Shown here piece after piece: positions 6,677-63,167 of a stretch of DNA of 64,000 bases; positions within the stretch are counted from its first letter, which is position 1; every line of letters starts with the position of its first letter. The notes beneath the pieces are model-generated. The model saw only the letters and a list, made by a program, of their open reading frames with translations, made no database searches and was not told the origin of the DNA. The translations under genes were made by a program, and so were the position numbers. Origin of the DNA: an uncultured Bacteroidota bacterium (GTDB lineage: Bacteria > Bacteroidota > Bacteroidia > Bacteroidales > WCHB1-69); NCBI GenBank assembly GCA_902786595.1, contig CADADB010000002.1, positions 158,011 to 222,010 of the forward strand, written 5' to 3'.

Positions 6677-6728
6677 GGCTGCCAACAGTCAACAGCCAAT
6701 GGCCAACAGCGAATAGCTAAAAGCTAAT
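6677..6728. repeat. Degenerate period-7 tandem array (CCAACAG/CCAATGG/GCTAAAA)
   Basis: ggctgccaacagtcaacagccaatggccaacagcgaatagctaaaagctaat. Confidence 0.8.
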
Positions 6729-10754: not shown

Positions 10755-10790
10755 AGCCAACAGCCAACAGCTAATAGCCAATAGCCAAAA
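10755..10790. repeat. Period-7 array (AGCCAAC/AGCTAAT)
   Basis: agccaacagccaacagctaatagccaatagccaaaa, between convergent genes. Confidence 0.8.
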
Positions 10791-12793: not shown

Positions 12794-12833
12794 CAATAGC
12801 CAAAAGCCAAAAGCTAATAGCCAACAGCCAAAA
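12794..12833. repeat. Period-7 array (AGCCAAA/AGCTAAT)
   Basis: caatagccaaaagccaaaagctaatagccaacagccaaaa. Confidence 0.8.
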
Positions 12834-13355: not shown

Positions 13356-13430
13356 GGTAATGGTTATGGGTTATGGGTTATGGGTTATTGAGGGTTATTG
13401 GTTATGGGTTATTGGTTAGGAGGTTAAGGT
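13356..13430. repeat. Period-7 array (GGTTATG), G3-tract rich
   Basis: ggtaatggttatgggttatgggttatgggttattgagggttattggttatgggttattggttaggaggttaagg. Abuts the cvpA ATG. Confidence 0.9.
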
Positions 13431-17773: not shown

Positions 17774-17778
17774 AGAAA

Positions 17779-17825
17779 GGTTATAGGTTATGAGTTATAG
17801 GTTATTGAATGGTTATTGGTTATAA
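17779..17825. repeat. Period-7 array (GGTTATA/GGTTATT) at the mlaE-mlaF junction
   Basis: ggttataggttatgagttataggttattgaatggttattggttata. Confidence 0.85.
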
Positions 17826-24348: not shown

Positions 24349-24354
24349 TGTATT

Positions 24355-24414
24355 AAGGTTTAGGGTTTAAGGTTTAAGGTTAAAAGGTTAGGAGGTTAGA
24401 AGGTAAAAGGTTAA
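24355..24414. repeat. Period-7 array (AAGGTTT/AAGGTTA)
   Basis: aaggtttagggtttaaggtttaaggttaaaaggttaggaggttagaaggtaaaaggttaa. Confidence 0.85.
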
Positions 24415-24479
24415 TATTATGGGGTTTATAAAAAATTTCCTTGAGCAGCCCCGTTAGGGGCAAGAGCTTGGTAGCAGGT

Positions 24480-26488: not shown

Positions 26489-27637
26489 TCACTGCTCACC
26501 GATAACCTGATACACCGTGTCCGACACGATGGTGGTGTCGCGGATCACGACGGTCCGGCGGACGGGCACCTTTTGGGTGATGATGACGGGGTCGGGATTC
26601 GTTGTTTCTTCCGTTTTCGCTAATGCGGCGGGTGGTGTCCCGACAACGCTGGCGGGTGACGTTTCGGCGTCGGTCCGTAGGGGCGAATAATTATTCGCCC
26701 CTACAACGGAATTTGTTCCTACAACGGATTTCGTCCCTACAACAGAATCTGTCGCCACAACGCGTTCCGTCAATGTATTCGTGTTAGGAGATGCAACCGT
26801 ATCAGGAGACATTGCGCGCACCGTCTCTACCATCGGGGACGGATTATTGGCCGGGTTTGGGGCGACGGGGTGGTGACGGCCCGCCTGCCAACCGACGGCG
26901 CCGCCCGTGATGCCCGCAGCCGTGACGAGGAGGAGGGTGGCCTTGTGCGCCGCGATAGCGGTGACGAATTTGCCCGGGGAGGTGGCCGCCGTTTGGACGA
27001 TTCCGGCGGCGGAATCCATTCGCAATCCCGACAATTTGGAACGGTACAACCGGTCCAACCGGCGGGAATCGGCGTTGGTTCGTTTCAGGATAAAAAGCAG
27101 GGGTATCATAAGCAATCCTTTCCTCTTGTTCTCTTTTTGTTTGTATTTGTCTGTGAGCATTTGGCCCAGACGCACGCGGGCCCGGTGGTGCAACTGCTTG
27201 GAGTAGGCCACCGAGATGTCGAGCAGTCCCGCGATGCGCCGGTGCGAGTATCCTTCGATGGCGTAGAGGTTGAAGACCGTCCGTTGCTGTTCCGGCAGCT
27301 GCTGGACGGTTTCCAACAGCTCCTTCTCTGTGAAGTCGGCGGTCCAAATCGGTTCGGTGTCTTCGTCTGGGCGTTCGGCGGCGGGTTCCGACTCCAAGGC
27401 GATGAAATCGGGCTTTTGTCGCAGGTAGTCGATGCAGTGGTTCACGGCGATGCGGGTCAGCCAGGCATCGAAGCGGCCGAAGGCGCGGTAGGCCTTGAAG
27501 GTTTCCATTGCCTTCAGGAACACGTCCTGCGCCAGATCCTGCGCCACCGTCCAGTCGTTGACATAGCGGTAGCAGATCCCGACAATCCTGCCGTGCCCCC
27601 TCCGGTACTGCTTCTCCCAAAATTTCGCCTTGTCCAT
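26489..27637 (-). CDS. ECF-type sigma-70 factor fused to a transmembrane segment and a low-complexity extracytoplasmic tail
   Basis: Probable start MDKAKFW at 27637. Region 2: DLAQDVFLKAMETF...DAWLTRIAVNHCIDYLRQ. Region 4: LPEQQRTVFNLYAIEGYSHRRIAGLLDISVAYSKQLHHRAR. About 200 further residues follow with one hydrophobic helix (ATLLLVTAAGITGGAVGW). Confidence 0.8.
   Translation of the reverse strand: MDKAKFWEKQYRRGHGRIVGICYRYVNDWTVAQDLAQDVFLKAMETFKAYRAFGRFDAWLTRIAVNHCIDYLRQKPDFIALESEPAAERPDEDTEPIWTADFTEKELLETVQQLPEQQRTVFNLYAIEGYSHRRIAGLLDISVAYSKQLHHRARVRLGQMLTDKYKQKENKRKGLLMIPLLFILKRTNADSRRLDRLYRSKLSGLRMDSAAGIVQTAATSPGKFVTAIAAHKATLLLVTAAGITGGAVGWQAGRHHPVAPNPANNPSPMVETVRAMSPDTVASPNTNTLTERVVATDSVVGTKSVVGTNSVVGANNYSPLRTDAETSPASVVGTPPAALAKTEETTNPDPVIITQKVPVRRTVVIRDTTIVSDTVYQVIGEQ
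26677..26704. repeat. GTAGGGG-type perfect palindrome inside the sigma-tail CDS
   Basis: GTAGGGGCGAATAATTATTCGCCCCTAC, 14 of 14 paired. Encodes VGANNYSPL. Confidence 0.9.
26701..26772. repeat. Four tandem 18-bp units inside the sigma-tail CDS
   Basis: ctacaacggaatttgttc / ctacaacggatttcgtcc / ctacaacagaatctgtcg / ccacaacgcgttccgtca. Encodes a (T/D)xSVVG hexapeptide repeat. Confidence 0.85.
26803..26830. repeat. Decayed GTAGAGACG element inside the sigma-tail CDS
   Basis: caGGAGACattgcgcgcacCGTCTCTAC. The right arm is intact and the left arm is decayed. Encodes VETVRAMSP. Confidence 0.6.
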
Positions 27638-27666
27638 TCGATACTGTTGCCGACTGCCTGCCCACC

Positions 27667-27734
27667 ACTCACTAATCACTGATCACTAATCACTAATATC
27701 ATAACGTGAAAAAGTGAAAAGGTGACAGCCGGGG
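27667..27734 (-). promoter_or_regulatory. Conserved leader element, copy A (upstream of the sigma gene; lacks the -7 box)
   Basis: Minus-strand reading: CCCCGGCTGTCACCTTTTCACTTTTTCACGTTATGATATTAGTGATTAGTGATCAGTGATTAGTGAG. Confidence 0.75.
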
Positions 27735-27763
27735 TGATATTTTTTGCGGTGAAATTACAAAAA

Positions 27764-28453
27764 TCAGAATTTCAAACGGTACCCCACATTCAAGATTCCT
27801 TGCGTGCCGTACCCCAATTCGATGTTCCCGTTGTTACGCTTGCCGAGGGAGACACCGAGCAGTGTGAGATGTCCGGAAGGAAAAATCACCAAATCGCCTT
27901 TCCAGTGTTCGTCCATAAAATACAAAGTAAACCCTAAAGAACAACCTGAATATAAGGTACAAACAGGGTATCTTTTAAAAGTGATTCGATAGGAAGTTTG
28001 CAATGCCCAAAACGCATTCAACGAATTATAGGGCTGATTCTCTCGTTTTAGAGTCTTAATCAACGGAGAATAGGGCTCTTGATAAGGGTTGTCGGTGGGC
28101 AGCGTGGTGATATGGCGGAATGCCAATGTGGATTGTATCCCGACGGCGTGAAACCGGGTCATGTTGTAGTAATAATTAAACGTGAAAGACCCTATCAGCC
28201 AGCTGTCTATGGTATCTCCTATATCCGTCTTGTAGTGTTCGTGATGGCTGAACCACTTTTCGTCGCTACGTGCACGATCCCACATTCCAATCACAGGATA
28301 AATTCCCATCGAAAAACCAATCTCATGTTTAGGCACATCAGACAACCCATCTGATGTGTTTTGTGCAGTACAAGTGACGGATACAAACAGAAACATGCAC
28401 AAAAACAAGAGTGAATACATTCCTAACAGGTCTTTTTTCATAATATGCAGCAT
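27764..28453 (-). CDS. Small outer-membrane beta-barrel-like protein (paralog of the 28454..29302 C-terminal domain)
   Basis: Signal peptide. Shares KHEI..S.G..P.IG and NIELG.GTQG.L..GY..KF with the upstream gene and has a C-terminal Phe. Its ATG abuts the upstream stop; Met5 at 28441 is an alternative start. Confidence 0.7.
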   Translation of the reverse strand: MLHIMKKDLLGMYSLLFLCMFLFVSVTCTAQNTSDGLSDVPKHEIGFSMGIYPVIGMWDRARSDEKWFSHHEHYKTDIGDTIDSWLIGSFTFNYYYNMTRFHAVGIQSTLAFRHITTLPTDNPYQEPYSPLIKTLKRENQPYNSLNAFWALQTSYRITFKRYPVCTLYSGCSLGFTLYFMDEHWKGDLVIFPSGHLTLLGVSLGKRNNGNIELGYGTQGILNVGYRLKF

Positions 28454-29302
28454 TTAGAATTTGTAACTGTAACCGATCTTCAACATCCCTTGTGTCCCTA
28501 ACCCAAGTTCTATGTTGGCAGCATTATGATTGCCTATACGTATTCCAAGATAATTGATGTTGAAATCGAAACGCCAATCGTGGCAGTTTTTTAATGGGTA
28601 AACGTTGGGGACTTCTGGCAAATGATTGATGCCATCCTCATAATAGGCTGCATCACCGATAAGATATAATGTGGCTCCAAAAGAAACCGAAGAATACAGG
28701 GATATTTTTTCTGTGTTAAAAAAATGTATGCTGTAGCCTGCTTGGAAACAGAGGTAGTGAACATAATCGTTTCTGTATGCCCAATGTCTCACATATATAG
28801 TCGGTGCCGTATGCTTCATCGCCGCCCAAGTAAGGTTGAAGTCCACACTGTGCAACTTGTTGAAATAAAGGTGGTATTGTAGATTGACACCTCCGAAGAA
28901 GAGCTCTTTTAAAGAACTATAGTCTTCAAAAGACACATTTTCAAAACTCCCTCGGTAAAAAGTGCCGATATAAGGGGCTAAACCGTACGAGACCTCGATC
29001 TCATGCTTGAGATCCAGACCGTTTTGACGTGCATGGTGGACAGGGCTTTGGCGGTACTCGTCCATGGCCAGCGCGACAGTGTCGTGCACTCGGAGCGTGT
29101 CGTGCACGAAGAGGGTGTCATAGACAGGCTCTTCCTCCACCACGTACAGGGTGTCGCGGTGCTGGGCGGAGAGGGGAGAGGCGAGGGCGAGGAGGACGAC
29201 GAGGGACAGACACGCACGTATTGCGCTGCGCGCATACTGTGCTACCGAGCTCTTGTCCCTCCGGGACTGCTTAAGGAAGTAGTTTCTTATATACATAGCC
29301 AT
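28454..29302 (-). CDS. Beta-barrel-like protein with a shared N-terminal module (MAMYIRN...QHRDTLYVVEEEPVYDTLFVHDTLRVHDT)
   Basis: 282 aa. Long signal/anchor region and a C-terminus ending GYSYKF. Confidence 0.7.
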   Translation of the reverse strand: MAMYIRNYFLKQSRRDKSSVAQYARSAIRACLSLVVLLALASPLSAQHRDTLYVVEEEPVYDTLFVHDTLRVHDTVALAMDEYRQSPVHHARQNGLDLKHEIEVSYGLAPYIGTFYRGSFENVSFEDYSSLKELFFGGVNLQYHLYFNKLHSVDFNLTWAAMKHTAPTIYVRHWAYRNDYVHYLCFQAGYSIHFFNTEKISLYSSVSFGATLYLIGDAAYYEDGINHLPEVPNVYPLKNCHDWRFDFNINYLGIRIGNHNAANIELGLGTQGMLKIGYSYKF

Positions 29303-29317
29303 ATCGGTTTAGCGCTA

Positions 29318-29393
29318 TTCACTGCTCACTGTTCACTGTTCACTAATATCATAACGTGAAAAAGCGAAAAGGTGACAGTCGGGGGCAAAAATA
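29318..29393 (-). promoter_or_regulatory. Conserved promoter plus leader element, copy B
   Basis: -7 box TATTTTTG (plus-strand 29386-29393), then CCCCCGACTGTCACCTTTTCGCTTTTTCACGTTATGATATTAGTGAACAGTGAACAGTGAGCAGTGAA on the minus strand. Confidence 0.75.
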
Positions 29394-29398
29394 AAATC

Positions 29399-30259
29399 TT
29401 ATTTAATCATACAGAATCTGACGGCGAAATTCAGCGAAATGTCATATCCGTGATAAGGATATTCCGTCGGCATACCCGTATAGCAAATCAACCATAACGG
29501 ATTGTTGTCCAAACTGGTACGTGGCGGTTTGGCATTTGCCGATTTCAGAAGGGAACAATAACCTGCCCTGAGGTCTATTTGAAAAGAGAGTTTAGGTTTT
29601 TTCAAGACAAACTCCACCCCAAACAAAGGATATACCCCAAGTTTCCAAAGCGTTGGTCGGAGTATTGAAACGCCTCCCGACAAGCCAGCTCCGACCATAT
29701 AATAGTAAAGCACCCCGTTTTTCTCAGCAATTTGACGTTGATATAAAAAGTTTTGAGAAAGTTCATATACGTACAGTATAAAACTATTCTCCGGAGAATA
29801 GTTGTTAATGAAAAATCTGCCTGAAAAATCGGTTTGGAAAACACAATTCTTGGAAATGCCGTATTTGATGGAAGGCCCGCCTCCGAGCACGTTAACATTC
29901 AAACCTGCACTAAACTTGTAAAATCCAGTACTATCCGTCTGCATCGGGACCAACGTGTCGTGCACTCGGAGCGTGTCGTGCACGAAGAGGGTGTCATAGA
30001 CCGGCTCTTCCTCCACCACATACAGGGTGTCGCGGTGCTGGGCGAAGAGGGGAGAGGCGAGGGCGAGGAGGACGACGATGACGAGGGACAGACACACACG
30101 TATTGCGCTGCGCGTACCGGTATCGCTGTCTCCGCAGTCCGAACCTGTCTCCAGCATCAAGCCCCACACTGCGCTGCGCTTGTGTGGGGTTAATTGCGCT
30201 TCGCGCGTGTTGCCTCTCCGAGGCTGCTTAAGGAAGTGGTTTCTAATATACATAGCCAT
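29399..30259 (-). CDS. Small beta-rich envelope protein carrying the same N-terminal module but a different C-terminal domain
   Basis: 286 aa. The N-terminal ~75 aa are near-identical to 28454..29302 apart from a ~25-aa insertion. The C-terminal domain is unrelated and ends RFCMIK. Confidence 0.65.
   Translation of the reverse strand: MAMYIRNHFLKQPRRGNTREAQLTPHKRSAVWGLMLETGSDCGDSDTGTRSAIRVCLSLVIVVLLALASPLFAQHRDTLYVVEEEPVYDTLFVHDTLRVHDTLVPMQTDSTGFYKFSAGLNVNVLGGGPSIKYGISKNCVFQTDFSGRFFINNYSPENSFILYVYELSQNFLYQRQIAEKNGVLYYYMVGAGLSGGVSILRPTLWKLGVYPLFGVEFVLKKPKLSFQIDLRAGYCSLLKSANAKPPRTSLDNNPLWLICYTGMPTEYPYHGYDISLNFAVRFCMIK
30162..30189. repeat. Hairpin inside the paralog-specific insertion
   Basis: CCCCACAC-tgcgctgcgctt-GTGTGGGG. 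Encodes TPHKRSAVWG in the n-region. Confidence 0.7.
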
Positions 30260-30267
30260 ATCGGTTT

Positions 30268-30350
30268 ATCACTGATCACTATTCACTATTTACTGCTCAC
30301 TATATTCATAACGTGAAAAAGTGAAAAGGTGACAGCCGGGGGCAAAAATA
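30268..30350 (-). promoter_or_regulatory. Conserved promoter plus leader element, copy C
   Basis: -7 box TATTTTTG (30343-30350), then CCCCCGGCTGTCACCTTTTCACTTTTTCACGTTATGAATATAGTGAGCAGTAAATAGTGAATAGTGATCAGTGAT. Confidence 0.75.
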
Positions 30351-30465
30351 CAAAAAAATGTTACAACTCATTCTTCCACAGCGCATCTTATTTCTCTAAA
30401 TTCATCAGACAATGGTTGTTTTTAGATAAATAAAACATCTTATCCGTCTGAAAAAGAAAAAAATA

Positions 30466-30473
30466 TATCTTTG
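30466..30473 (+). promoter_or_regulatory. -7 box TATCTTTG
   Basis: 28 nt upstream of the ATG at 30502. Confidence 0.55.
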
Positions 30474-30501
30474 CAGCAAAATAAAACCAACGATTATAGT
30501 T

Positions 30502-31932
30502 ATGAACATTGTAGGAAGAACCCAGGAAATAGAAGAGCTTGAGCGATTGTATAATGCTGACAATTCGGAATTTGTAGCCGTTTATGGTCGCCGGCGTGTC
30601 GGAAAAACCTATTTAATCAAGGAAGTTTTCAAAGACAGGTTTGCTTTTTGGCACACAGGATTATCACCTTACGACCGAGACAAGAAATTCCTGCTTCGTG
30701 ACCAATTGCAAACTTTTTTCTATTCATTGCAAGATTATGGATTGCGAGGCGAACCATGTCCAAAATCATGGCTTGAGGCATTCCGCCTTTTGGAGAAATT
30801 GCTTGAGCAAAAGGATAATGGTGAAAAATTGGTGGTTTTCATAGACGAAATGCCGTGGATGGACACGGCGCGGTCACGATTTATACCGGCTTTTGAACAT
30901 TTTTGGAATGGTTGGGCGGCGAAACGTGACAACATCTTATTGATTGTCTGTGGTTCGGCTACATCGTGGATAGAGGACAATATCCTTAACAGCAAAGGTG
31001 GTTTGTACAACAGGTTGCATCGGGAAATCAAACTTCGCCCTTTCACGTTGGCAGAAAGCGAAGAGTATTTCCGCAGCAAAGGGATAGCAATGAGTCGTTA
31101 TGATGTAGCCCAAACATATATGGTGTTGGGCGGCATTCCTCATTATTTGAGTCTTTTCGAGAAAGGTTTCAGCGCGGCGCAGAATATCGACCGCCTTTTC
31201 TTTGAAAAAAAGGCGATGTTGGAAGACGAATTTGACCGTCTTTTCGGATCCTTGTTCAAGAATGCGGATGACCATAAGAAAATTGTCAGATTTCTTTCAC
31301 GGCGAAGAGGCGGTTACACCAGAAAAGAAATTCTCGAACATACGGGCATTCAGGATGGTGGTGGTGCTTCTGAAATGCTCAAGGGATTGGAGGCGAGCGA
31401 TTTTGTCACCTCATACTATCCTTTTGGAGAACGAAAAACAGAACGGTACAGACTTTCGGACCCGTTTTGTCTCTTTTGGCTTCAATTTGTAGATGGTACG
31501 GGGTCTCGGGATGTGCAGTTTTGGCAGAAAAATGCAATCTCTCCACAGTTGAATGTTTGGCGTGGACTCGCCTTCGAAGAGCTGTGTTTCTCACATATTG
31601 CCCAAATCAAACGAAAATTAGGCATCGCTGGGGTCTGTTCCTCTGAGTCTTCTTGGTTGGTGGTTAATGTTGATAAAAAGCAGCAGCTGGATATGCTTAT
31701 CGACCGAGCCGATAACGTTGTAAATCTTTGTGAAATAAAGTTTTATGGAAAACCTTTCGTTATAGACAAATCTTACGACATTATTCTTCGCGAGCGCGTT
31801 CAGACGCTGATGGATGTTGTGCCACACAAGAAGAGCATTCATCTGACTATGATAGTGGCATCCGGACTGAAACAGAACGAATATAGCGGGCAAGTGCAGA
31901 ACGTGGTCACTCTTGACGATCTGTTCGTGTGA
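30502..31932 (+). CDS. AAA ATPase (archaeal-ATPase/DUF234-type) with a PD-(D/E)xK-like C-terminus
   Basis: Walker A GRRRVGKT, Walker B LVVFIDEMPW, and C-terminal D...NLCEIKF. Confidence 0.8.
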   Translation: MNIVGRTQEIEELERLYNADNSEFVAVYGRRRVGKTYLIKEVFKDRFAFWHTGLSPYDRDKKFLLRDQLQTFFYSLQDYGLRGEPCPKSWLEAFRLLEKLLEQKDNGEKLVVFIDEMPWMDTARSRFIPAFEHFWNGWAAKRDNILLIVCGSATSWIEDNILNSKGGLYNRLHREIKLRPFTLAESEEYFRSKGIAMSRYDVAQTYMVLGGIPHYLSLFEKGFSAAQNIDRLFFEKKAMLEDEFDRLFGSLFKNADDHKKIVRFLSRRRGGYTRKEILEHTGIQDGGGASEMLKGLEASDFVTSYYPFGERKTERYRLSDPFCLFWLQFVDGTGSRDVQFWQKNAISPQLNVWRGLAFEELCFSHIAQIKRKLGIAGVCSSESSWLVVNVDKKQQLDMLIDRADNVVNLCEIKFYGKPFVIDKSYDIILRERVQTLMDVVPHKKSIHLTMIVASGLKQNEYSGQVQNVVTLDDLFV

Positions 31933-31948
31933 ATCACAACATCGGGTT

Positions 31949-32023
31949 GTCACTGTTCACTGCTCACTGTTCACTATATTCGTAACGTGAAAAAGTGAAA
32001 AGGTGACAGTCGGGGCAAAAATA
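31949..32023 (-). promoter_or_regulatory. Conserved promoter plus leader element, copy D (orphan)
   Basis: -7 box TATTTTTG (32016-32023), then CCCCGACTGTCACCTTTTCACTTTTTCACGTTACGAATATAGTGAACAGTGAGCAGTGAACAGTGAC. No cognate gene follows. It points into the 3' end of the ATPase gene. Confidence 0.7.
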
Positions 32024-32063
32024 AAAAAAATCGGACAAACAATATTGCATTCGAAAAATATTG

Positions 32064-32071
32064 TAATTTTG
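32064..32071 (+). promoter_or_regulatory. -7 box TAATTTTG
   Basis: 25 nt upstream of the ATG at 32097. Confidence 0.55.
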
Positions 32072-32096
32072 CAGTGGATTTCGAATAAACATAGAT

Positions 32097-33365
32097 ATGC
32101 AAGCATACGTAAAAAGAGACACCTATCTTAATCGGTTGATTGTCAGGAGAAACAACAACATGGTTAAAGCTATAACAGGACCGCGGCGTGCAGGAAAATC
32201 CTTCCTGCTGAATCCTATTTTTAAAGATTATCTATTGGAGCAAGGGGTTCAGGAAGACCACATCATCAGCATTTCTTTTGACATTGAGGATGAAGATACT
32301 CCTCGTGAACTGCTGGACAGGGAGAAGCTAAAAGAATATCTGTATTCACGAATCATCTCAAAAACAGAACCTTACTATGTGTTTTTAGATGAGATTCAGG
32401 AAGTTGAGAATTTTGAGAAGATTGTCAACGGACTGAACAATCGTCCAAATGTGGACGTGTATATCACGGGCAGCAATTCGAAATTCCTCTCCAATGACAT
32501 CATCACGATTTTCAGAGGTCGCAGCGACGAGGTGAACATCATGCCTTTCACATTTAAGGAATTTTGTCAGGACCGGCAAGAGTCAGTCGGTGAATTATGG
32601 AAGGAGTATTACACCTTCGGAGGACTTCCTGCACTCAGGATGATGCCGACATACGAACAGAAAACCTCGTATCTGCAAAGGCTCTGGAAGAAGACCTATC
32701 TCGACGATGTGGTAGAACGGCATCACGTGGAAAACCGAGAGGCACTTGAGGCGATTACCGATGCATTGTGTTCCTCCGTCGGATCGCTGACAAACACTTC
32801 ACGAATCACCAACACATTGGCGAGTGTGAGGAAAATTAAAATCTCAGACGATACGGTTTCCAAATATATCGGATATTTGGAAGAGGCGTTCTTGTTCAAC
32901 GAAGCCAAAAGATACAACATCAAAGGGAATAAGTATTACGAAAACATTAAAAAATACTATTCGGTTGATGTTGGGCTAAGGAATGTCCGTTTGAATTACA
33001 GACAACTGGAGCAGACCCACCTGATGGAAAATATTATCTTCAATGAGCTTTTACATCGGGGTTACGTTGTTGATGTCGGGGTGATCGAAGCTCGAGTGAT
33101 GAAAAATGGGAAATCAGAATACAAACAGTATGAGGTGGATTTTATTGCAACCAACGGGAACGAAAAGTATTACATCCAGTCGGCATACGAGTTGTCCTCC
33201 GATACTAAACGCGAGCAGGAACTTAACTCTCTGAAACGAATTGACGATTCTTTCCAGAAGATTGTCATTGTCAAAGACGATATTATGCCTTATCGAGATG
33301 AAAAAGGCATTTACTTTATTGGATTGTTTCAGTTCCTGATGAGTGACAAGATAGTGGCAATCTAA
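32097..33365 (+). CDS. AAA ATPase (AAA_14 plus DUF4143-type)
   Basis: Walker A GPRRAGKS and Walker B YYVFLDEIQ. The C-terminal EVDFIA...YYIQSAY resembles the DUF4143 nuclease-like core, but with Q/A where E/K are usual. Confidence 0.8.
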   Translation: MQAYVKRDTYLNRLIVRRNNNMVKAITGPRRAGKSFLLNPIFKDYLLEQGVQEDHIISISFDIEDEDTPRELLDREKLKEYLYSRIISKTEPYYVFLDEIQEVENFEKIVNGLNNRPNVDVYITGSNSKFLSNDIITIFRGRSDEVNIMPFTFKEFCQDRQESVGELWKEYYTFGGLPALRMMPTYEQKTSYLQRLWKKTYLDDVVERHHVENREALEAITDALCSSVGSLTNTSRITNTLASVRKIKISDDTVSKYIGYLEEAFLFNEAKRYNIKGNKYYENIKKYYSVDVGLRNVRLNYRQLEQTHLMENIIFNELLHRGYVVDVGVIEARVMKNGKSEYKQYEVDFIATNGNEKYYIQSAYELSSDTKREQELNSLKRIDDSFQKIVIVKDDIMPYRDEKGIYFIGLFQFLMSDKIVAI

Positions 33366-35543: not shown

Positions 35544-35612
35544 CGGTCGTTTACCTAATTGTGGCCCTTTTATGTTTTTTTGCGTCTTAATAAAAAGTGA
35601 ACGTTATTTATT

Positions 35613-36887
35613 ATGAATATGAAAAATATACGACTGACAACCATTTTTCTTACACTTTTACTGTCATATGGACACGTTTGTATGTCCCAGCAGTTAGACA
35701 AGCATATTTTGAAGACTCAGCGGGATATTGACTTGTTTTTTGAAAAATATGATGAGATTTATGATGTGTATCATGACTTTTACAAAGATAAACAGTTCGA
35801 TAAGGCGATTCTCCATCTAAAAGAACTTGTCACATTCTTTGACACAACTGCTATTGACAGTCAGTGGGTGGATGCTAGGATCTACAAGGAAGAAATGACA
35901 GCCGATGTATATTATAATCTTGCATGCTGCTACGCATTGACGGCACAAAAGAAACTGGCATTGGAAACACTGGAAAAATCCATACGCGTAGGTTACAAGG
36001 ATTATCGTAATATGCTTAACGACAGCGATTTTGAGAGTATCAGAGAAGACAAGAAATTCAAATCCTTACTTGAAGAGATTAAGCAATATGACCGATTGAC
36101 GATTTTGCAAAATTCGTCTGCCTATATCAAAGATGACAACGATTCGCTGCCGCAATTTGTTTATCAGGATTCTGGAGACTATCGTTTGTTGAATGTCAGA
36201 AAGTTTTTTGATCTGGACTCCGTTGCCGGTGACGGTGATGAGATTTCCAAGATCCTGAATATCCTTCATTTCGTTCATAAAGTTATCCGGCACGATGGGG
36301 GCAATTTTGCGCTGTGTGAATTTGATGCTATCGATATCTACAATTATCACAAATCAACAGGAAAAGGTGTCAATTGCCGTCATCTGGCCATTGCTTTGAA
36401 TGAGATGTATCTTTCGATGGGCATACCGTCGCGATATGTGACCTGTATGCCATACGACGAGAAAGATCAGGATTGCCACGTCATCAATTCGGTTTGGTCG
36501 TCACAATATCAGAAATGGATTTGGATAGACCCCACTTTCGAAGCATACGTGAAAGACGAAAATGGTAATTTCTTGAGCATCCTGGAAGTGCGGGAGAGAC
36601 TAATTGACGGTCGGCCTCTTTTCTTGAACGAGGATGCCAACTGGAATTATGAGAACAAGCAGACAAAAGAGTATTATCTGGAGGGCTATATGGCCAAAAA
36701 CCTATATTGGTTTGATTGCGTGACAAATTATTGTTTTAATCCGGAGAGCAGATATAGGTATGTGAAGAATAAGCACGTGGTTTTAACACCGTCAACATAC
36801 AAAACGCCATCAACATACGAAAATTCCAGCGATTGGGCCGTTATCACCCACGATGCCGATTATTTTTGGCAAACTCCGACAAAATAA
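35613..36887 (+). CDS. Secreted TPR plus transglutaminase-like cysteine peptidase-fold protein
   Basis: Signal peptide and an N-terminal TPR-like helix region. Candidate triad context: GVNCRHLA (Cys), DCHVINSVW (His), WIWIDPT (Asp). Confidence 0.7.
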   Translation: MNMKNIRLTTIFLTLLLSYGHVCMSQQLDKHILKTQRDIDLFFEKYDEIYDVYHDFYKDKQFDKAILHLKELVTFFDTTAIDSQWVDARIYKEEMTADVYYNLACCYALTAQKKLALETLEKSIRVGYKDYRNMLNDSDFESIREDKKFKSLLEEIKQYDRLTILQNSSAYIKDDNDSLPQFVYQDSGDYRLLNVRKFFDLDSVAGDGDEISKILNILHFVHKVIRHDGGNFALCEFDAIDIYNYHKSTGKGVNCRHLAIALNEMYLSMGIPSRYVTCMPYDEKDQDCHVINSVWSSQYQKWIWIDPTFEAYVKDENGNFLSILEVRERLIDGRPLFLNEDANWNYENKQTKEYYLEGYMAKNLYWFDCVTNYCFNPESRYRYVKNKHVVLTPSTYKTPSTYENSSDWAVITHDADYFWQTPTK

Positions 36888-43723: not shown

Positions 43724-43892
43724 GAGATCACTAAAAAACGCATTTTTTTGTAATCTTTCGGGCGTTTTTTCGTTATAAGAATAAACCAATTATGAATTAT
43801 GAATGATGATAATACGATAAAAACTACCGAGCTCTTGCCCCTACCGACCAACTGCTAACAGCCTATTGCCTATTAACTTAATACCCAACAAT

Positions 43893-45893
43893 ATGAAAAA
43901 CCAACTACCCCTTTTCGTGGCCACCTTCGCCACCCTTTTCATCACCCTCGCCGCCTCCGCCCAAGGCGAGTGGAAGTGGGCGCATTGCTGGAGCAGTACA
44001 CCACCCCCAAACAACTACGATGTTAACACTGTAAAAAACATCGATTTTGACGATGAGGGGAATGTTTATGTGTTGGGGACTTTTGGTGGAAACCTGACGT
44101 TTGACGGTAACACGTTCCTTTTCCTCAATAATCCAACTGTTTATTACAATTCCAGCTGGAGCGCATTTATTATGAAATATGACACTATGGGCAATATGTT
44201 GTGGCATAAAGAGGTGAAAACCAGTCGGGATAGCAGGTGCATACCCCACTGGTTGGAAGTGAGAGACAATAAAGTTTATGTCATGGGGAATGCTGGCCTG
44301 ACCGATGTGGATGCTTATTCCGATGATCAGGCTTGGCACTATTGGCTCGACACCTTGATAACCGGTTCTCAGGTGCGGCCTATCCCAAGAGATCAAAGGG
44401 TTCCGCCGTGTACGGTAGGACGATGGTCCTATTTGGCCACTTTTGACTTGGACGGAAACCTGTTGGACAGCCATTTCGTTCAGCCTTTCGGTCGAAAAAT
44501 ATATGCTAATAATATCCGTGCAGAAGAATATCTTTGCAACGAGGCGAGTTTAAATATCTCACCTTTTCATGTTGATGCGCAGGGGAATACATACATTTTC
44601 ACTAAATTAGTTTATGACGGCCCCAGCACCAATCCATATACCTTGGTGGTGGATGGCGACACCAACAGAAAATATGATATTTATTTTCCTGAAGGAAGCG
44701 ATGTCCCAGGCCCTTATTTCACAAATATAATGATGTATAAGTTTTCCCCAGATTGGGAATTGCTGTTCGCGAAACAATTGATAGATCATTCGGACGGTAT
44801 TGGACTTTCGATAGGAGACTCTATTAATCCATATACACCGTCCCTGTCTGGTTTTTCTGTTGATGAGGAAGGGAACTTCTACTTGTCTGGCCATTTTGTG
44901 ATTCCTAGTGAAGATATCTACTTTAATGTACCTCCCCAATTCCCTGTTCACATATATTGGGATAGTATTCATTATGTAACGATTCAGGATTATAGCTCTG
45001 ATATTACGCCTTTTATTATCAAATATAATGCGGACGGGGAACTTCTTTGGTGTAACCAGATATATACGCTCGGTTCTCATGATCCGAATCTTCCAGACCA
45101 TGCAAACAGCAATGTGTCGGGTTGTTATTATAATAATGGACATGTATATATGATAGGAGTGGGAGCTTATGGGCCACAGGGCAGCGTTTATTTTGATGAT
45201 CCGAGCCATCCGTTAAGCCAAATGGTGGAAAACCAACTCAACATCGGTTTTTTTGTCGGCTATGATGCCATGACGGGGCATTATGTCAGCCATGGTATTG
45301 TTCCGGCAAACAATTCAGGAACAGGGTTTCGCTTGGCGGCTCTCCACAACAGAGTCTTTGCCTATGCAATAGCAAATCTTATAAACCAAGCTTTTTACCA
45401 ATGGAGAGAAGACGGTTTGTTCATTCATGCGGATACCATATATTCCTCAAGTTCGTTTGGCTACGGCAATACGTATGTCAATAATCAAGGATATATGGCG
45501 ATTTCAGGCGAATGCCAATCTTCCGTAACGTTCTCTGACAACGTATCTGTTTGCAGCAGTCCAACAGTTTGCAAAAGTGCAGTCATCGCCCTCTATCATA
45601 ACCCCGAATTCACCACGCCATACGTGGGCATCCCCGCGTATGACAGGCTGAAGCCGGGGGTGCGGCTGTGGCCCAACCCCGCCACCGAGCGGATCACCAT
45701 CGAGAGCGAGGAGGAGTTCCTCATCATCTCCGTCTCCGTGGCCAACATGCAGGGCACTATCCTCACTCTCCTCCCCGTCAACGACGTGCGCTGCACCCTC
45801 AACGTCCACAATCTCGCCCCCGGCACTTACATTGCGCACGTGGAGACCAAGGCGGGAATCAACGATGTGAAGTTTGTGGTGGGGAGAAATTAA
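43893..45893 (+). CDS. SBBP-like beta-propeller repeat protein with T9SS type-A C-terminal sorting domain
   Basis: Signal peptide at the ATG 43893. Recurrent D..GN.Y..G motifs. CTD: LWPNPATERITIES...GTYIAHVETKAGINDVKFVV. Confidence 0.8.
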   Translation: MKNQLPLFVATFATLFITLAASAQGEWKWAHCWSSTPPPNNYDVNTVKNIDFDDEGNVYVLGTFGGNLTFDGNTFLFLNNPTVYYNSSWSAFIMKYDTMGNMLWHKEVKTSRDSRCIPHWLEVRDNKVYVMGNAGLTDVDAYSDDQAWHYWLDTLITGSQVRPIPRDQRVPPCTVGRWSYLATFDLDGNLLDSHFVQPFGRKIYANNIRAEEYLCNEASLNISPFHVDAQGNTYIFTKLVYDGPSTNPYTLVVDGDTNRKYDIYFPEGSDVPGPYFTNIMMYKFSPDWELLFAKQLIDHSDGIGLSIGDSINPYTPSLSGFSVDEEGNFYLSGHFVIPSEDIYFNVPPQFPVHIYWDSIHYVTIQDYSSDITPFIIKYNADGELLWCNQIYTLGSHDPNLPDHANSNVSGCYYNNGHVYMIGVGAYGPQGSVYFDDPSHPLSQMVENQLNIGFFVGYDAMTGHYVSHGIVPANNSGTGFRLAALHNRVFAYAIANLINQAFYQWREDGLFIHADTIYSSSSFGYGNTYVNNQGYMAISGECQSSVTFSDNVSVCSSPTVCKSAVIALYHNPEFTTPYVGIPAYDRLKPGVRLWPNPATERITIESEEEFLIISVSVANMQGTILTLLPVNDVRCTLNVHNLAPGTYIAHVETKAGINDVKFVVGRN

Positions 45894-45964
45894 GAATGCA
45901 GAATTCAGAATGGCGATGAGGCTGTAATACCCAGCAATTGTAAATCTCTGGAACAAAGCAATTT

Positions 45965-46755: not shown

Positions 46756-47004
46756 CCGCAACGCGGTATCTATCTCTATCCCAACCCCACGGACGGGCAG
46801 ATCACCGTGTGCGGCTACATGTATGGCTACCGCAGCATCGAGCTGCTCGACCTCCAGAGCCGCAAGCTGGCCACCCTCTTAGATTCGCCCCACGGCACGT
46901 CCCTGCCCGAAATCGACCTCTCGCCCTATCCCTCCGGCACCTACCTCGTGAAGATCAACTTCAACCGAGGGGTGAGCGTGGTGAGGAAAATAGTTAGGAG
47001 TTAG
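46756..47004 (+). pseudogene. Orphan T9SS type-A C-terminal domain (3' remnant of a cargo gene)
   Basis: The frame opens right after a TAA at 46753. It reads TQRGIYLYPNPTDGQITV...IDLSPYPSGTYLVKINFNRGVSVVRKIV. There is no passenger domain, signal peptide or start codon upstream. Confidence 0.7.
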
Positions 47005-47017
47005 CAGTTAGTAGTTG
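46992..47017. repeat. Period-7 array (AGTTAGN)
   Basis: agttaggagttagcagttagtagttg, covering the stops of both convergent ORFs. Confidence 0.7.
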
Positions 47018-47776: not shown

Positions 47777-47885
47777 AAGCTAAGCAATAGGGACTTCTTC
47801 GTTAAACTCCACTCCGTTCTTATATCGTCCGGACACACGGACAACGTGCCGCTTCGCATCCCCGAACCTTTAACTCTACCTCTTC

Positions 47886-47913
47886 AATAACCAATAACCT
47901 ATAACCTATAACC
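47886..47913. repeat. Period-7 array (ATAACCN)
   Basis: ataaccaataacctataacctataacca, abutting the rlmH stop. Confidence 0.85.
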
Positions 47914-47914
47914 A

Positions 47915-48385
47915 TTAATGATGGTACGGCTCACCCTTCAAAATCGTACACGCCCGGTAGAGTTGCTCGGTGAAGATGAGGCGCACCATGATGTGCGGGA
48001 AGGTGAGCTTCGAGAGGGCCAGCTGCGCGTTCTGTCGGGCATAGACGGCTTCGGAGAAACCATAGGCACCGCCGATGACGAAGGTGAGCGTCTTCAACCC
48101 CGAGTTAGCACGCTGCTGGATGAACTCCGCGAACTGCACGGAGGTTTTCTCCTTGCCGCGCTCGTCCCATAACACCACGTACTCGTCCGACTCTATCTTC
48201 TTGAGTATCAGCTCGCCCTCGCGCTTTTTCTGCTCCTCCACCGGCATCGACTTGGCATTCTTCAGATACGGAATCGCCACGGTCTCGTACGGGATGTAGG
48301 TGGCGATTTTGGCCGTGTACTGCCGGATGGCCTCGTCAAAGATGTCGCCATCAGGTTTGCCGATCCATATTAATTTGATTTTCAT
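47915..48385 (-). CDS. rlmH: 23S rRNA (pseudouridine1915-N3)-methyltransferase
   Basis: 156-aa SPOUT fold with the typical MKIKLIWIGK start and the ending GEPYHH. Confidence 0.93.
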   Translation of the reverse strand: MKIKLIWIGKPDGDIFDEAIRQYTAKIATYIPYETVAIPYLKNAKSMPVEEQKKREGELILKKIESDEYVVLWDERGKEKTSVQFAEFIQQRANSGLKTLTFVIGGAYGFSEAVYARQNAQLALSKLTFPHIMVRLIFTEQLYRACTILKGEPYHH

Positions 48386-48392
48386 TTTTTTA

Positions 48393-48422
48393 AGGCAATA
48401 GGCAATAGGGAACAGGGAATAG
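48393..48422. repeat. Period-7 array (GGCAATA/GGGAACA)
   Basis: aggcaataggcaatagggaacagggaatag. Confidence 0.8.
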
Positions 48423-55586: not shown

Positions 55587-55618
55587 AACCCTTAACCTTT
55601 AACCCTTAACCCTTAAAC
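55587..55618. repeat. Period-7 array (AACCCTT)
   Basis: aacccttaacctttaacccttaacccttaaac, filling the purA-stop to next-ATG gap. Confidence 0.9.
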
Positions 55619-62061: not shown

Positions 62062-63087
62062 ATGAACGAGAATTTAGATCCTACCCGGCAACATCTTTCC
62101 GCCTCGGACAAAGAGTTTGAGCGCGCCATACGCCCTGCGCAATTTACGGATTTCCAGGGGCAAAAACAGGTGCTGGAGAATCTGATGGTCTTCGTGCATG
62201 CCGCCAAAGGACGTGGCGAGGCACTGGATCACGTTTTGTTGCACGGGCCTCCTGGACTGGGCAAGACCACCTTGTCACACATCATCGGCAACGAGATGGG
62301 CGTGAACGTGCGTGTCACTTCCGGCCCTGTCATTGACAAGCCCGGCGATTTGGCAGGACTGCTCACCAATTTGGAACCCAACGATGTCCTGTTTATTGAT
62401 GAAATCCACCGATTGTCGCCTGTGGTGGAGGAGTATCTCTACTCAGCGATGGAGGACTACAAAATCGACATTATGATTGACAGTGGTCCGAGTGCTCGGA
62501 GCGTGCAGATTTCCATCAACCCGTTCACACTGGTGGGCGCCACCACGCGGTCGGGTCTGCTGACGGCACCGCTGAGGTCGCGTTTCGGCATTAACTTGCG
62601 TCTGCAATACTATGATGCCCAGACACTTGGCAATATCATTAAACGGTCGGCTTCCATTTTGGACATTCCCATCGACGAGGATGCCGCCTACGAAATCGCT
62701 TCCCGCAGTCGTGGCACTCCGCGTATCGCCAACCTGTTGTTGCGACGTGTCCGCGACTTCGCCCAGATCAAAGGCGACGGCACCATCACCCTGCCCATCA
62801 CGCAGATTGCCTTGACGGCGTTGAATGTTGATAAGCACGGATTGGACGAAATGGACAACCGTATCCTGAGCACCATCATCGAGAAGTTCAAGGGTGGTCC
62901 GGTGGGCTTGAGTACTATCGCCACTGCCGTGGGCGAAGACCCTGGCACCATCGAGGAGGTCTATGAGCCGTTCTTGATCCAGGAAGGTTACCTGATGCGT
63001 ACCCCCCGTGGCCGTGAAGCCACCGATCTGGCATTCACGCACCTGGGGAAGTCGAGGTATGTGTCGGGGCAGGGGGAACTGTTTTGA
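62062..63087 (+). CDS. ruvB: Holliday junction branch-migration helicase RuvB
   Basis: [18 protein letters not shown] and [16 protein letters not shown]. Confidence 0.98.
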
Positions 63088-63112
63088 ATTAAGAATTAAG
63101 AATTAAGAATGA
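63086..63112. repeat. Period-7 array (GAATTAA)
   Basis: gaattaagaattaagaattaagaatga, starting at the ruvB stop. Confidence 0.9.
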
Positions 63113-63134
63113 GGGAGAGGTAACTACTATCCCA

Positions 63135-63167
63135 ACAATTATCCATTATCCATTATCAATTCATTAC
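63135..63167. repeat. Period-7 array (CCATTAT)
   Basis: caattatccattatccattatcaattcattaca. Confidence 0.8.

Follow-up and report, generated by a model that had tools for sequence, protein, structure and literature searches.

Why does one short element recur four times, always on the same strand, around an ECF sigma factor gene and a few small genes in a rumen Bacteroidales genome, and is it a promoter, a structured leader or both? We suggest that each of the four repeats represents a single promoter-plus-leader module, likely composed of a recognition site for the ECF sigma factor and an unstable 7-base tandem repeat. The module is an ordinary sort of regulatory element rather than an RNA structure that is conserved. 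In the window, i.e., the whole 64,000-nucleotide stretch that was analyzed, the features concerned are the following, with scores from a PWM built from sigma orthologs and with the −35 and −10 elements as putative assignments:

26489..27637, minus strand: ECF sigma factor gene, 382 aa, Sigma70_r2 and r4_2 domains
27667..27734, minus strand: copy A, upstream of the ECF sigma gene, 34.1 bits; −35 TGTCAC (27722-27727) and −10 CGTTA (27702-27706), separated by a T-rich spacer of 15 nt; four AGTGANN heptamers at 27667-27697; sigma-gene ATG at 27637, after a linker of 30 nt
27764..28453, minus strand: omp1, 229 aa, paralog of the omp2 barrel (26% identity)
28454..29302, minus strand: omp2, 282 aa; carries a signal peptide and a DTLYVVEEEPVYDTLFVHDT motif; its C-terminal barrel has 8 strands and ends GYSYKF
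29318..29393, minus strand: copy B, upstream of omp2, 37.7 bits; −7-like box TATTTTTG at 29386-29393; −35 at 29372-29377; −10 at 29352-29356; heptamer tract at 29318-29345; omp2 ATG at 29302
29399..30259, minus strand: omp3, 286 aa
30268..30350, minus strand: copy C, upstream of omp3, 32.4 bits; −7-like box TATTTTTG at 30343-30350; −35 at 30329-30334; −10 at 30309-30313; heptamer tract at 30268-30303; omp3 ATG at 30259
30502..31932, plus strand: AAA ATPase gene (ATPase_2/AAA_14), between copies C and D
31949..32023, minus strand: copy D, an orphan, 29.3 bits; −7-like box TATTTTTG at 32016-32023; −35 at 32003-32008; −10 at 31983-31987; heptamer tract at 31949-31976

The four copies, first described in the original prediction, are a well-defined family. 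The 26-nt core AACGTGAAAAAGYGAAAAGGTGACAG has four matches in the window (27703, 29353, 30310 and 31984, plus-strand coordinates) and none in 100 dinucleotide shuffles, and a repeat finder returned a single 81-nt family, the members of which are precisely copies A, B, C and D. Read on the minus strand, every copy has the sequence CCCCGRCTG-TCACC-TTTT-C(A/G)C-TTTTT-CAC-GTTAYGAWAT followed, as had been described, by 4-5 AGTGANN heptamers; TRF assigned period 8 to the left half and period 7 to the right half (3.7-4.1 copies, all four elements). The three CAC blocks face GUGA blocks as proposed, but they are spaced 8 and 8 nt apart rather than 7-8 nt. Also in agreement with the earlier description, TATTTTTG precedes copies B, C and D, while copy A has GCAAAAAATATCA at the equivalent position; copy A lacks the box because the stop codon of omp1 (27764) adjoins its upstream side. 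The proposal that the sigma-proximal copy lacks a −7 box is correct for this strain but does not apply generally, as TATTTTTG is present in 10 of 16 distinct sigma-proximal copies from related genomes. Downstream of copy D is a remnant, AACCCGATGTTGTGA, beyond which the ATPase gene on the opposite strand has its 3' end, a junction that recurs in L001, L019 and L113; the ATPase gene itself is found only in part of the related strains.

The start codon of the sigma gene was placed at 27637 because MDKAKFW begins all orthologs. The protein contains one moderately hydrophobic segment (residues ~223-250) and a C-terminal tail of ~130 aa and is probably membrane-anchored; no separate anti-sigma gene was seen adjoining the sigma gene. 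Searches of Pfam and NCBIfam gave no matches for the three omp genes, the barrel fold of which was recognized solely via an AlphaFold model and Foldseek. The omp3 gene has its 5' end and N-terminal motif in common with omp2 but a different C-terminal domain. We infer that omp2 and omp3 are transcribed from the putative promoters in copies B and C, respectively, and co-transcription of omp1 with omp2 is probable because omp1 directly adjoins omp2 and is not preceded by a separate module copy. The linkage between the sigma and omp families is conserved, on the basis of the L026/P0130 pair: L026 has a 247-aa gene directly 3' of the sigma gene, which was equated with P0130, an omp2 homolog (46% identical), from protein length and a common 217,319-bp contig rather than from a sequence match.

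Comparative evidence argues that the left half, TGTCAC-N15-CGTTA, is best regarded as the autoregulated promoter of the adjacent ECF sigma, within an explanation of the whole module that we hold with a probability of about three in four. First, GTCAC-N15-CGTTA is present in all four copies, and across the 64-kb window the PWM gave high scores (29-38 bits) only at these copies, the next best score being 20.7. Second, among sigma orthologs with 39-63% protein identity, GTNAC-N15-CGT lies ≤160 nt upstream of the sigma gene in 67 of 81 cases compared with 70 of 3909 control windows (1.8%), and distant full-length orthologs (48-53% identity) have TTGTCAC-N15-CGTC(A/T) 9-23 nt before the ATG without heptamers. 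The 29 distinct motif instances, GT(C/A/T)AC-N15-CGT(C/T), all have the 15-nt spacer and give the consensus (T/C)GT(A/T/C)ACC-TTTT-NN-TATTTTTG-CGTCAT. Only GTNAC, the T-tracts and CGT are retained across lineages; the spacer CAC blocks vary, being replaced in other lineages by CTC, TAC, CGT, CAT or TGC. The near-invariance of the whole 25-nt core in the window clade is uninformative because these strains are closely related. Third, when the −35 variant was compared with 200 alignment columns, the best predictor was residue 151 in the sigma-4.2 recognition helix (mutual information equal to the full class entropy; H with GTCAC, L/F with GTAAC, Y with GTTAC) and the second best was residue 117 at the start of sigma-4, a covariation that is confounded by shared ancestry. 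Fourth, a paralogous sigma has an identical spacer and −10 but a different −35 (TGGCCC). What had been noted as a loose resemblance to an ECF −35/−10 pair is favored by ortholog conservation and by the apparent tracking of the −35 with sigma-4. The 15-nt spacer is 1-2 nt below that of well-studied ECF promoters, and the −35 of the window clade has CAC where the canonical sequence is AAC. In Todor et al. 2020 (PMC7776599), spacers of 15-18 nt were searched and those of 16-18 nt scored; ECF sigmas often autoregulate, and motifs upstream of their genes are a routine way to ECF promoters (Todor et al. 2020, PMC7776599).

We suggest a model in which the adjacent ECF sigma recognizes the left half by means of the −35 TGTCAC, the invariant 15-nt T-rich spacer and the −10 CGTTA, and in which transcription would start a few bases past the −10, within the AT-rich TGAWAT. 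If the sigma recognizes the left half, its gene would consequently self-activate from copy A; the sigma may also switch on the neighboring small outer-membrane beta-barrel genes via copies B and C. In the right half, (AGTGANN)2-5 is a heptamer simple-sequence repeat that would form the 5' end of the leader and in which slippage may alter the number of units between strains and paralogs. The TAnnTTTG box ~9 nt upstream of the −35 probably provides basal transcription by the housekeeping sigma or serves as an A/T-rich upstream element; copy A is without the box only because omp1 abuts it, so that read-through from copy B could substitute there. Finally, direct-orientation repeats of the module together with the first ~16 omp codons would enable homologous recombination to reshuffle cassettes and leave orphans behind, and copy D may be such an orphan, left beside the inserted ATPase gene.

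The repeat portion has the properties of a heptamer simple sequence repeat, i.e., at least three tandem 7-nt intergenic units and a polymorphic unit number. Among 32 otherwise near-identical window-clade copies the number of heptamers varies from 2 to 5, with AGTGA nearly fixed and the final two positions variable, and at another orthologous intergenic array both unit and length differ between strains. The window contains 11 stringent lag-7 arrays, all intergenic, compared with 0-1 at lags 5, 6 and 8-12. The module heptamers are one case of a genome-wide habit of intergenic heptamer arrays in this lineage. Leaders of orthologous sigma genes have heptamers of other types or none.

Among the alternatives, a structured 5' leader survives best, although we regard it as unlikely. 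Here, transcripts from the upstream TATTTTTG would hold both arms, UCAC would pair with the GUGA heptamers in a long mismatched hairpin, and the hairpin, tuned by heptamer number, would set stability, processing or translation; this idea is compatible with the promoter reading. The hairpin that had been predicted does form in silico, with an MFE of −18.7 to −28.1 kcal/mol for the four copies on the sense strand (z −1.7 to −2.4), but the antisense strand folds at least equally well (z −1.3 to −3.5). If read from upstream, all 32 window-clade copies have 15-28 inter-arm pairs (mean z −1.9 versus a shuffled right arm), and the near fixation of AGTGA also fits a paired arm. TAnnTTTG is enriched in the window (58 occurrences versus 35 expected) and usually lies 18-45 nt ahead of start codons, which suggests that the organism uses the box; however, this box is missing upstream of copy A. 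Moreover, the left arm is the very sequence that −35, spacer and −10 make up, so that the promoter sufficiently explains its conservation. The comparison of lineages counts against the leader half of the original promoter-or-leader proposal and leaves the promoter half standing: as in the refuting condition named there, the TCAC/GTGA register is lost in other lineages, which have unrelated heptamers and promoter-leader pairing no better than shuffles (z −1.3 to +0.8). The two features come apart in L045/L046, where GTGA heptamers persist although the CAC blocks of the spacer are gone (z +0.8), and in L042, where the spacer includes a CAC block and heptamers are absent; in 8 of 16 omp copies there are just two GUGA units. 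A systematic complementarity between leader heptamers and promoter spacer across lineages was not found. Rfam, searched with the whole window at the gathering score and with 27500-32200 at E up to 10, gave only two tRNAs and one chance match, and no match to the element. The TCAC/GTGA hairpin can fold in the window clade (z ~−2), but only in transcripts begun upstream, and its pairing is unconserved elsewhere.

The closest precedent for such a leader is Haemophilus influenzae hmw1A/hmw2A, in which a 5' UTR heptamer repeat, (ATCTTTC)n, forms one arm of an RNase III-cut hairpin (Rapun-Araiz et al. 2025, PMC12721329). As in that system, a surface-protein gene has, between its promoter and start codon, a 7-nt repeat of polymorphic unit number that may form a 5' UTR hairpin arm. 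By contrast, there are 2-5 rather than at least 11 units here, the pairing is unconserved in relatives, and the complementary arm is the promoter itself, so that it would be transcribed only from an upstream start. It is conceivable, but improbable, that the two promoters together form an expression dial in which upstream-box transcripts hold the ECF promoter as the left hairpin arm and the heptamers as the right. Equally improbable is the remainder of this idea, that ECF-promoter transcripts hold the repeat alone and that slippage between 2 and 5 units sets hairpin strength and thus the basal output of the barrel cassettes. If true, the dial would be an hmw-like contingency mechanism in commensal rumen Bacteroidales, with promoter DNA doubling as an RNA arm.

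It is very unlikely that the module is a housekeeping (primary sigma) promoter only, with conserved flanks in which GTNAC and CGTC would act as an operator or as a signal of the initiation region. The Bacteroidetes −7 consensus is TAnnTTTG (Ryan et al. 2020, PMC7366714), and in most lineages TATTTTTG, a perfect match, sits within the spacer, immediately ahead of CGTC; in the window clade and in the L030/L042/L047 lineage it is found ~10 nt ahead of the −35. With a TAnnTTTG box either in the spacer or close upstream of the −35 in most lineages, primary-sigma initiation is inseparable from ECF-dependent initiation. However, lineages without a spacer box still keep GTCAC, CGT and the exact 15-nt distance, and L031, L103 and L106 have the box at neither place. 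ECF recognition predicts just such a bipartite motif of fixed spacing, with an upstream half that is not the same for paralogous sigmas and that appears to follow a sigma-4 residue.

It is scarcely credible that the module is a mobile element or a recombination site (MITE/REP-like, or an attC-like cassette site) by which omp and ATPase cassettes are moved or shuffled. In strains with flanking genes 85-100% identical (mostly >93%), the stretch from the PDZ-protease gene to the sigma gene does contain differing cassette sets, each bounded by copies, plus orphans, and the element has the symmetry of an inverted repeat. However, copies are confined to one locus per genome, as the genome-wide count proposed earlier revealed, and all share one orientation and a short, fixed distance to the start codon that follows; in distant lineages the only copy is the one ahead of the sigma gene, at the orthologous place; no recombinase or integrase was found among the genes scanned within ~6 kb; and direct repeats of 80-145 nt suffice for ordinary homologous recombination. 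In an exact-pattern scan of 185,579 genomes, the element was confined to rumen Bacteroidales MAGs and to this locus within them; matches in Acidobacteriota and Planctomycetota were unrelated (TTTTCACN)n arrays, and single Prevotella and Christensenella matches had neither heptamers nor a −10. An invertible promoter was rejected because the inter-arm loop is only 12 nt and no inverted variants occur among 37 distinct copies. On sequence reasoning, a CRP/FNR-type operator has the wrong half-site order (TCAC-N12-GTGA), and the 7- and 8-nt periods are off helical phasing. A dCas12f-guided sigma system, which lacks conserved −35/−10 motifs unlike the module here (PMC12259090), was dismissed as no such gene adjoins the sigma gene.

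As an autoregulated ECF promoter, the module has a familiar organization. The Bacillus subtilis SigW promoter is TGAAAC-N16-CGTA and that of SigX is TGTAAC-N17-CGAC. Like such promoters, the module is bipartite with a CGT-type −10, lies ahead of the gene for the sigma itself and of a few envelope genes close by, is near consensus in each copy, and has a −35 specificity that differs between paralogs and, with the confounding by shared ancestry noted above, appears to track sigma-4. It differs in its spacer (15 versus 16-17 nt), in its −35 (GTCAC here, GTAAC/GTTAC in relatives) and in embedding or adjoining TAnnTTTG; the sigma differs in its probable membrane anchor, its long C-terminal tail and the lack of a visible adjoining anti-sigma gene. 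Propagated ("mobile") promoters, reportedly described by Matus-Garcia et al. in 2012, are said to place the same promoter upstream of non-homologous genes. Similarly, one module precedes sigma and omp genes, which are unrelated, and has orphan copies as well; in contrast, its spread stays within one locus, and tandem duplication and recombination account for it.

GT(C/A/T)AC-N15-CGTC is a testable candidate promoter motif for an uncharacterized family of probably membrane-anchored ECF sigmas, with 80 related loci in the metagenome collection, and the minimal regulon that we propose comprises the sigma itself and small OmpA/OmpX-like barrel cassettes that vary between strains. Few ECF recognition motifs are available for Bacteroidetes, and the sole example named in Ryan et al. 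2020 (PMC7366714) is that of B. fragilis EcfO; our literature search found no published Bacteroides ECF motif of the GTNAC-N15-CGT type. The gain in knowledge is incremental, and we do not claim a new principle. The locus also illustrates that a tempting periodic RNA hairpin can be a by-product of a promoter adjoining a simple-sequence repeat.

Cyanobacterial STRR are heptamer repeats. TAACTGA repeats are found in Beggiatoaceae, Cyanobacteria and five Bacteroidetes (MacGregor 2015, PMC4679880), and long simple sequence repeats (LSSR) were described by Mrazek 2007, as cited in MacGregor 2015 (PMC4679880). The arrays here resemble all three in being short 7-nt tandem arrays that are almost all intergenic and often directly ahead of start codons, with 7 nt the favored length. 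Unlike the TAACTGA repeats, this genome has many different units rather than one, among them TCACTRN, GCCAACA, GGTTATG, TTAAGGT, AGGCAAT and more, and the arrays are also present between convergent genes and are replaced from strain to strain.

We conclude from sequence comparison that the element is a putative promoter-plus-leader module in which a recognition site of the adjacent ECF sigma factor is joined at its downstream side to a heptamer tract that is unstable. On this basis we infer where transcription of the module starts and that it depends on the sigma factor. The module belongs to a known kind of element, of which this case is a new member, and the recognition site would be copied along with each cassette of omp genes, i.e., genes for outer-membrane barrel-type proteins. 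Four copies, all directed along the minus strand, are present in the window:

27667-27734, minus strand: copy A, ending 30 nt from the ATG (27637) of the ECF sigma gene
29318-29393, minus strand: copy B, ending 16 nt before the ATG of omp2
30268-30350, minus strand: copy C, ending 9 nt before the ATG of omp3
31949-32023, minus strand: copy D, an orphan: downstream of its leader come the remnant CCGATGTTGTGA and, on the opposite strand, the 3' end of a gene for an AAA ATPase

These positions agree with the original observation. All copies share a 26-nt core, AACGTGAAAAAGYGAAAAGGTGACAG, at 27703, 29353, 30310 and 31984 (0 in 100 shuffles), and a repeat finder grouped just these four in a single 81-nt family. 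On the minus strand, each copy reads CCCCGRCTG TCACC TTTT C(A/G)C TTTTT CAC GTTAYGAWAT, followed by four to five AGTGANN heptamers.

The proposal that the element is the sigma factor's own target promoter is well supported by several lines of comparative evidence. First, the sigma factor belongs to a well-defined family marked by a common C-terminal extension (245 matches, full-length identity 39-53%). In upstream regions taken from the contexts of four homologs and then from 80 metagenome loci collected with the family alignment, a bipartite motif precedes the sigma ATG in nearly all homologs and loci examined, with the variants TTGTCAC-atttttgtatttttg-CGTCA, TTGTCAC-cttttctctttttat-CGTCA and CTGTCAC-cttttcgttttttca-CGTCT and, in more distant clades, (T/C)GT(A/T)ACC-TTTT-NN-TATTTTTG-CGTCAT. 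GTNAC-N15-CGT lies ≤160 nt upstream of 67/81 orthologs compared to 70/3909 control windows, and its spacer is 15 nt in 29/29 distinct instances. Second, GTNAC, two T-tracts and CGT are constant across lineages, while the CAC blocks of the spacer, originally regarded as the left arm of a hairpin, are swapped in other lineages for CTC, TAC, CGT, CAT or TGC. By phylogenetic footprinting, this combination of fixed and replaced blocks argues for a putative ECF-type -35/-10 promoter. The same logic was used by Staron, Rhodius and Todor (PMC7776599), and roughly half of ECF sigma factors are autoregulated (PMC7776599). Third, the column that best predicts the -35 variant is residue 151 within the sigma-4.2 recognition helix (H with GTCAC, L or F with GTAAC, Y with GTTAC), with mutual information equal to the class entropy, followed by residue 117 at the start of sigma-4; this association is supportive only, because scores of this type are inflated by shared ancestry. 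Fourth, a paralogous sigma factor in several loci has an identical spacer and -10 with TGGCCC as -35, and an ortholog-derived weight matrix gives copies A-D 29-38 bits in the window, where the next best site reaches 20.7. Both results would fit an ECF promoter. In the related loci L050, L055, L061, L101, L102 and L108, a sister motif, TTG(T)GGCCC-N15-CGTC(A/T)T, stands before a paralogous sigma gene that is longer (MQAKQFW...; 307-471 aa per ORF, with some ORFs truncated by the end of the locus). The occurrence of this motif in the window, at 35559-35591 (plus strand; 20.7 bits) before a transglutaminase/TPR gene at 35613, may mark the regulon of a second sigma factor with a different -35.

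The gene downstream of copy A codes for an ECF sigma factor that has Sigma70_r2 and r4_2 domains, a moderately hydrophobic segment at residues ~223-250 and, at its C-terminus, a tail of ~130 aa. In its C-terminal coding region, an 18-nt tandem repeat (26694-26765, 3.6 copies) encodes SVVGT(K/N) repeats. The omp2 and omp3 genes are paralogs with their first ~16 codons and an N-terminal DTLYVVEEEPVYDTLFVHDT motif in common. Pfam and NCBIfam gave no match for omp2; an AlphaFold model from 15 homologs predicts eight confident strands, for which Foldseek gave matches to the OmpA transmembrane domain, OmpX, Ail and OmpW (E 5e-4 to 3e-3). The sigma-omp gene link is conserved beyond the window: in locus L026, a 247-aa gene directly after the sigma gene is taken as P0130, an omp2 homolog of 46% identity, an assignment that rests on shared length and a shared 217,319-bp contig, not on sequence comparison. 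The sigma tail DPVIITQKVPVRRTVVIRDTTIVSDTVY (~26489-26660, minus strand) resembles the mature omp N-terminus DTLYVVEEEPVYDTLFVHDTLRVHDTV (omp2, ~29090-29170, minus strand), with 32% identity over 44 aa and a pairwise E of 1e-5, and the motif is kept within both families; a common partner or sensing mechanism is conceivable.

In copies B, C and D, a housekeeping-type box precedes the module. The primary sigma factor of Bacteroidetes has TAnnTTTG as its -7 consensus (PMC7366714). Because this motif is enriched in the window (58 sites vs 35 expected) and typically placed 18-45 nt before start codons, the organism uses the box. As originally described, TATTTTTG precedes copies B, C and D, while copy A has GCAAAAAATATCA instead; however, 10/16 sigma-proximal copies in the clade of close rumen relatives carry TATTTTTG, and it is missing only where omp1 abuts the element, an arrangement that the window shares. 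Thus, the missing box at the sigma-proximal copy is a strain-level accident. Members of the sigma family have the box at one of two places, namely within the ECF spacer with CGTC directly after it or, as in the window clade and L030/L042/L047, ~10 nt upstream of the -35; a few lineages have it at neither. The dual arrangement could combine basal housekeeping-sigma transcription, or an A/T-rich upstream element, with ECF-dependent positive feedback.

A structured 5' leader had also been proposed, with conservation of the pairing as its touchstone. The hairpin is indeed predicted to form (-18.7 to -28.1 kcal/mol), but with modest z scores (-1.7 to -2.4) and no advantage over the antisense strand, which folds equally well or better. 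Rfam gave no match at the element, even at E up to 10. As a conserved RNA structure, the leader does not hold up: elsewhere the CAC blocks are replaced, the heptamers are other or absent, and leaders folded over the stretch that begins 9 nt before the -35 and ends at the ATG have z scores of -1.3 to +0.8 in lineages with simple heptamer leaders (window-clade mean -1.9), strongly negative values in some loci being due to an unrelated internal hairpin. In L045/L046, GTGA heptamers are retained and the spacer CAC blocks are gone; L042, with a CAC block in its spacer, lacks heptamers. We nevertheless retain, as an unlikely add-on to the promoter rather than an alternative to it, the idea that a regulatory hairpin in the 5' UTR has the heptamer repeat as one of its arms, because Haemophilus influenzae hmw1A provides a real precedent in which a heptamer repeat supplies one such arm (PMC12721329). 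Both arms would be contained solely in transcripts begun at the upstream box. A motif of ~45-80 nt, TTCCTTRAGCAG-[YCYC]G-RAG-[GRGR]CA..., often followed by CCCCAYAC..GTGTGGGG, occurs in ~30 related loci and in the window at 29251-29278 (minus), 30208-30235 (minus) and 24437-24464 (plus). Its stem has compensatory variants (CCCC/GGGG, CCTC/GAGG, TCCC/GGGA). Inside omp genes the motif codes for an N-terminal FLKQPRRG, in L051, L057, L088, L101 and L102 it is part of the non-coding leader of the sigma gene, and a non-coding copy in the window lies just 3' of parE.

In the promoter-plus-leader module, the GTGA heptamers are a simple-sequence repeat and not a conserved partner of the left arm. Orthologous sigma leaders have no array or 7-nt arrays of differing sequence: AGGCAAT (up to nine units), CAACAGC/TAATAGC, ATAGGTA or, in just two lineages besides the window clade, GTGA-type. 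Stringent period-7 arrays number 11 in the window, vs 0-1 at periods 5, 6 and 8-12, and 11/11 are intergenic in a window that is ~88% coding. Near parE, strains differ at an orthologous intergenic site in both the unit and the length of the array. Heptamers were described earlier as a favoured long repeat unit with no function assigned, with arrays just 5' of start codons in some Bacteroidetes (MacGregor 2015, PMC4679880). 7-nt arrays occur throughout the intergenic DNA of the window, some between convergent genes (6681-6710, 10755-10788, 12794-12833, 13362-13418, 17778-17823, 24353-24414, 43788-43809, 45888-45911, 46992-47016, 47885-47918, 48393-48422, 55587-55616 and 63086-63161), with units of many kinds (GCCAACA, CAAAAGC, GGTTATG, TTAAGGT, AATTATG, CAATAAC, AGGCAAT, AACCCTT, GAATTAA and others). 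Intergenic inverted 8-nt arrays in Acidobacteriota/Planctomycetota MAGs, (GTGAAAAN)3-5, a 25-35 nt spacer and (NTTTTCAC)4-10, came up solely through a 21-mer common with the element and look unrelated to it (L003-L006, L008, L009, L012, L014, L020, L021, L024, L025); they would give long near-perfect hairpins, and the L009 array itself recurs every 47 nt.

When one genome per species was scanned for the exact pattern, the element turned up only in rumen Bacteroidales MAGs, in one to three copies per contig and always at the same locus as in the window. In these strains, the PDZ-protease and ParE genes on either side share 85-100% (mostly >93%) identity with those of the window; despite these similar flanks, the protease-to-sigma stretch varies in its content of omp paralogs and ATPase genes, with a copy of the element bounding every cassette. 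Among 37 distinct window-clade copies, of which 16 are sigma-proximal, 16 lie upstream of omp genes and 5 are orphans, a 25-nt core is invariant save one spacer base (CAC, CGC or CTC), while the heptamers number two to five and the upstream C-run likewise varies in length. Within the cassette array, AAA ATPase genes lie on the opposite (plus) strand at 30502-31932 (ATPase_2/AAA_14) and 32097-33365 (AAA_14+DUF4143); their presence or absence among related strains is independent of each other, which suggests insertion or mobility. In one related MAG, L007 (5520-5972), only ~430 nt lie between parE and the element with the start codon of the sigma gene, and most of that gene appears to be deleted.
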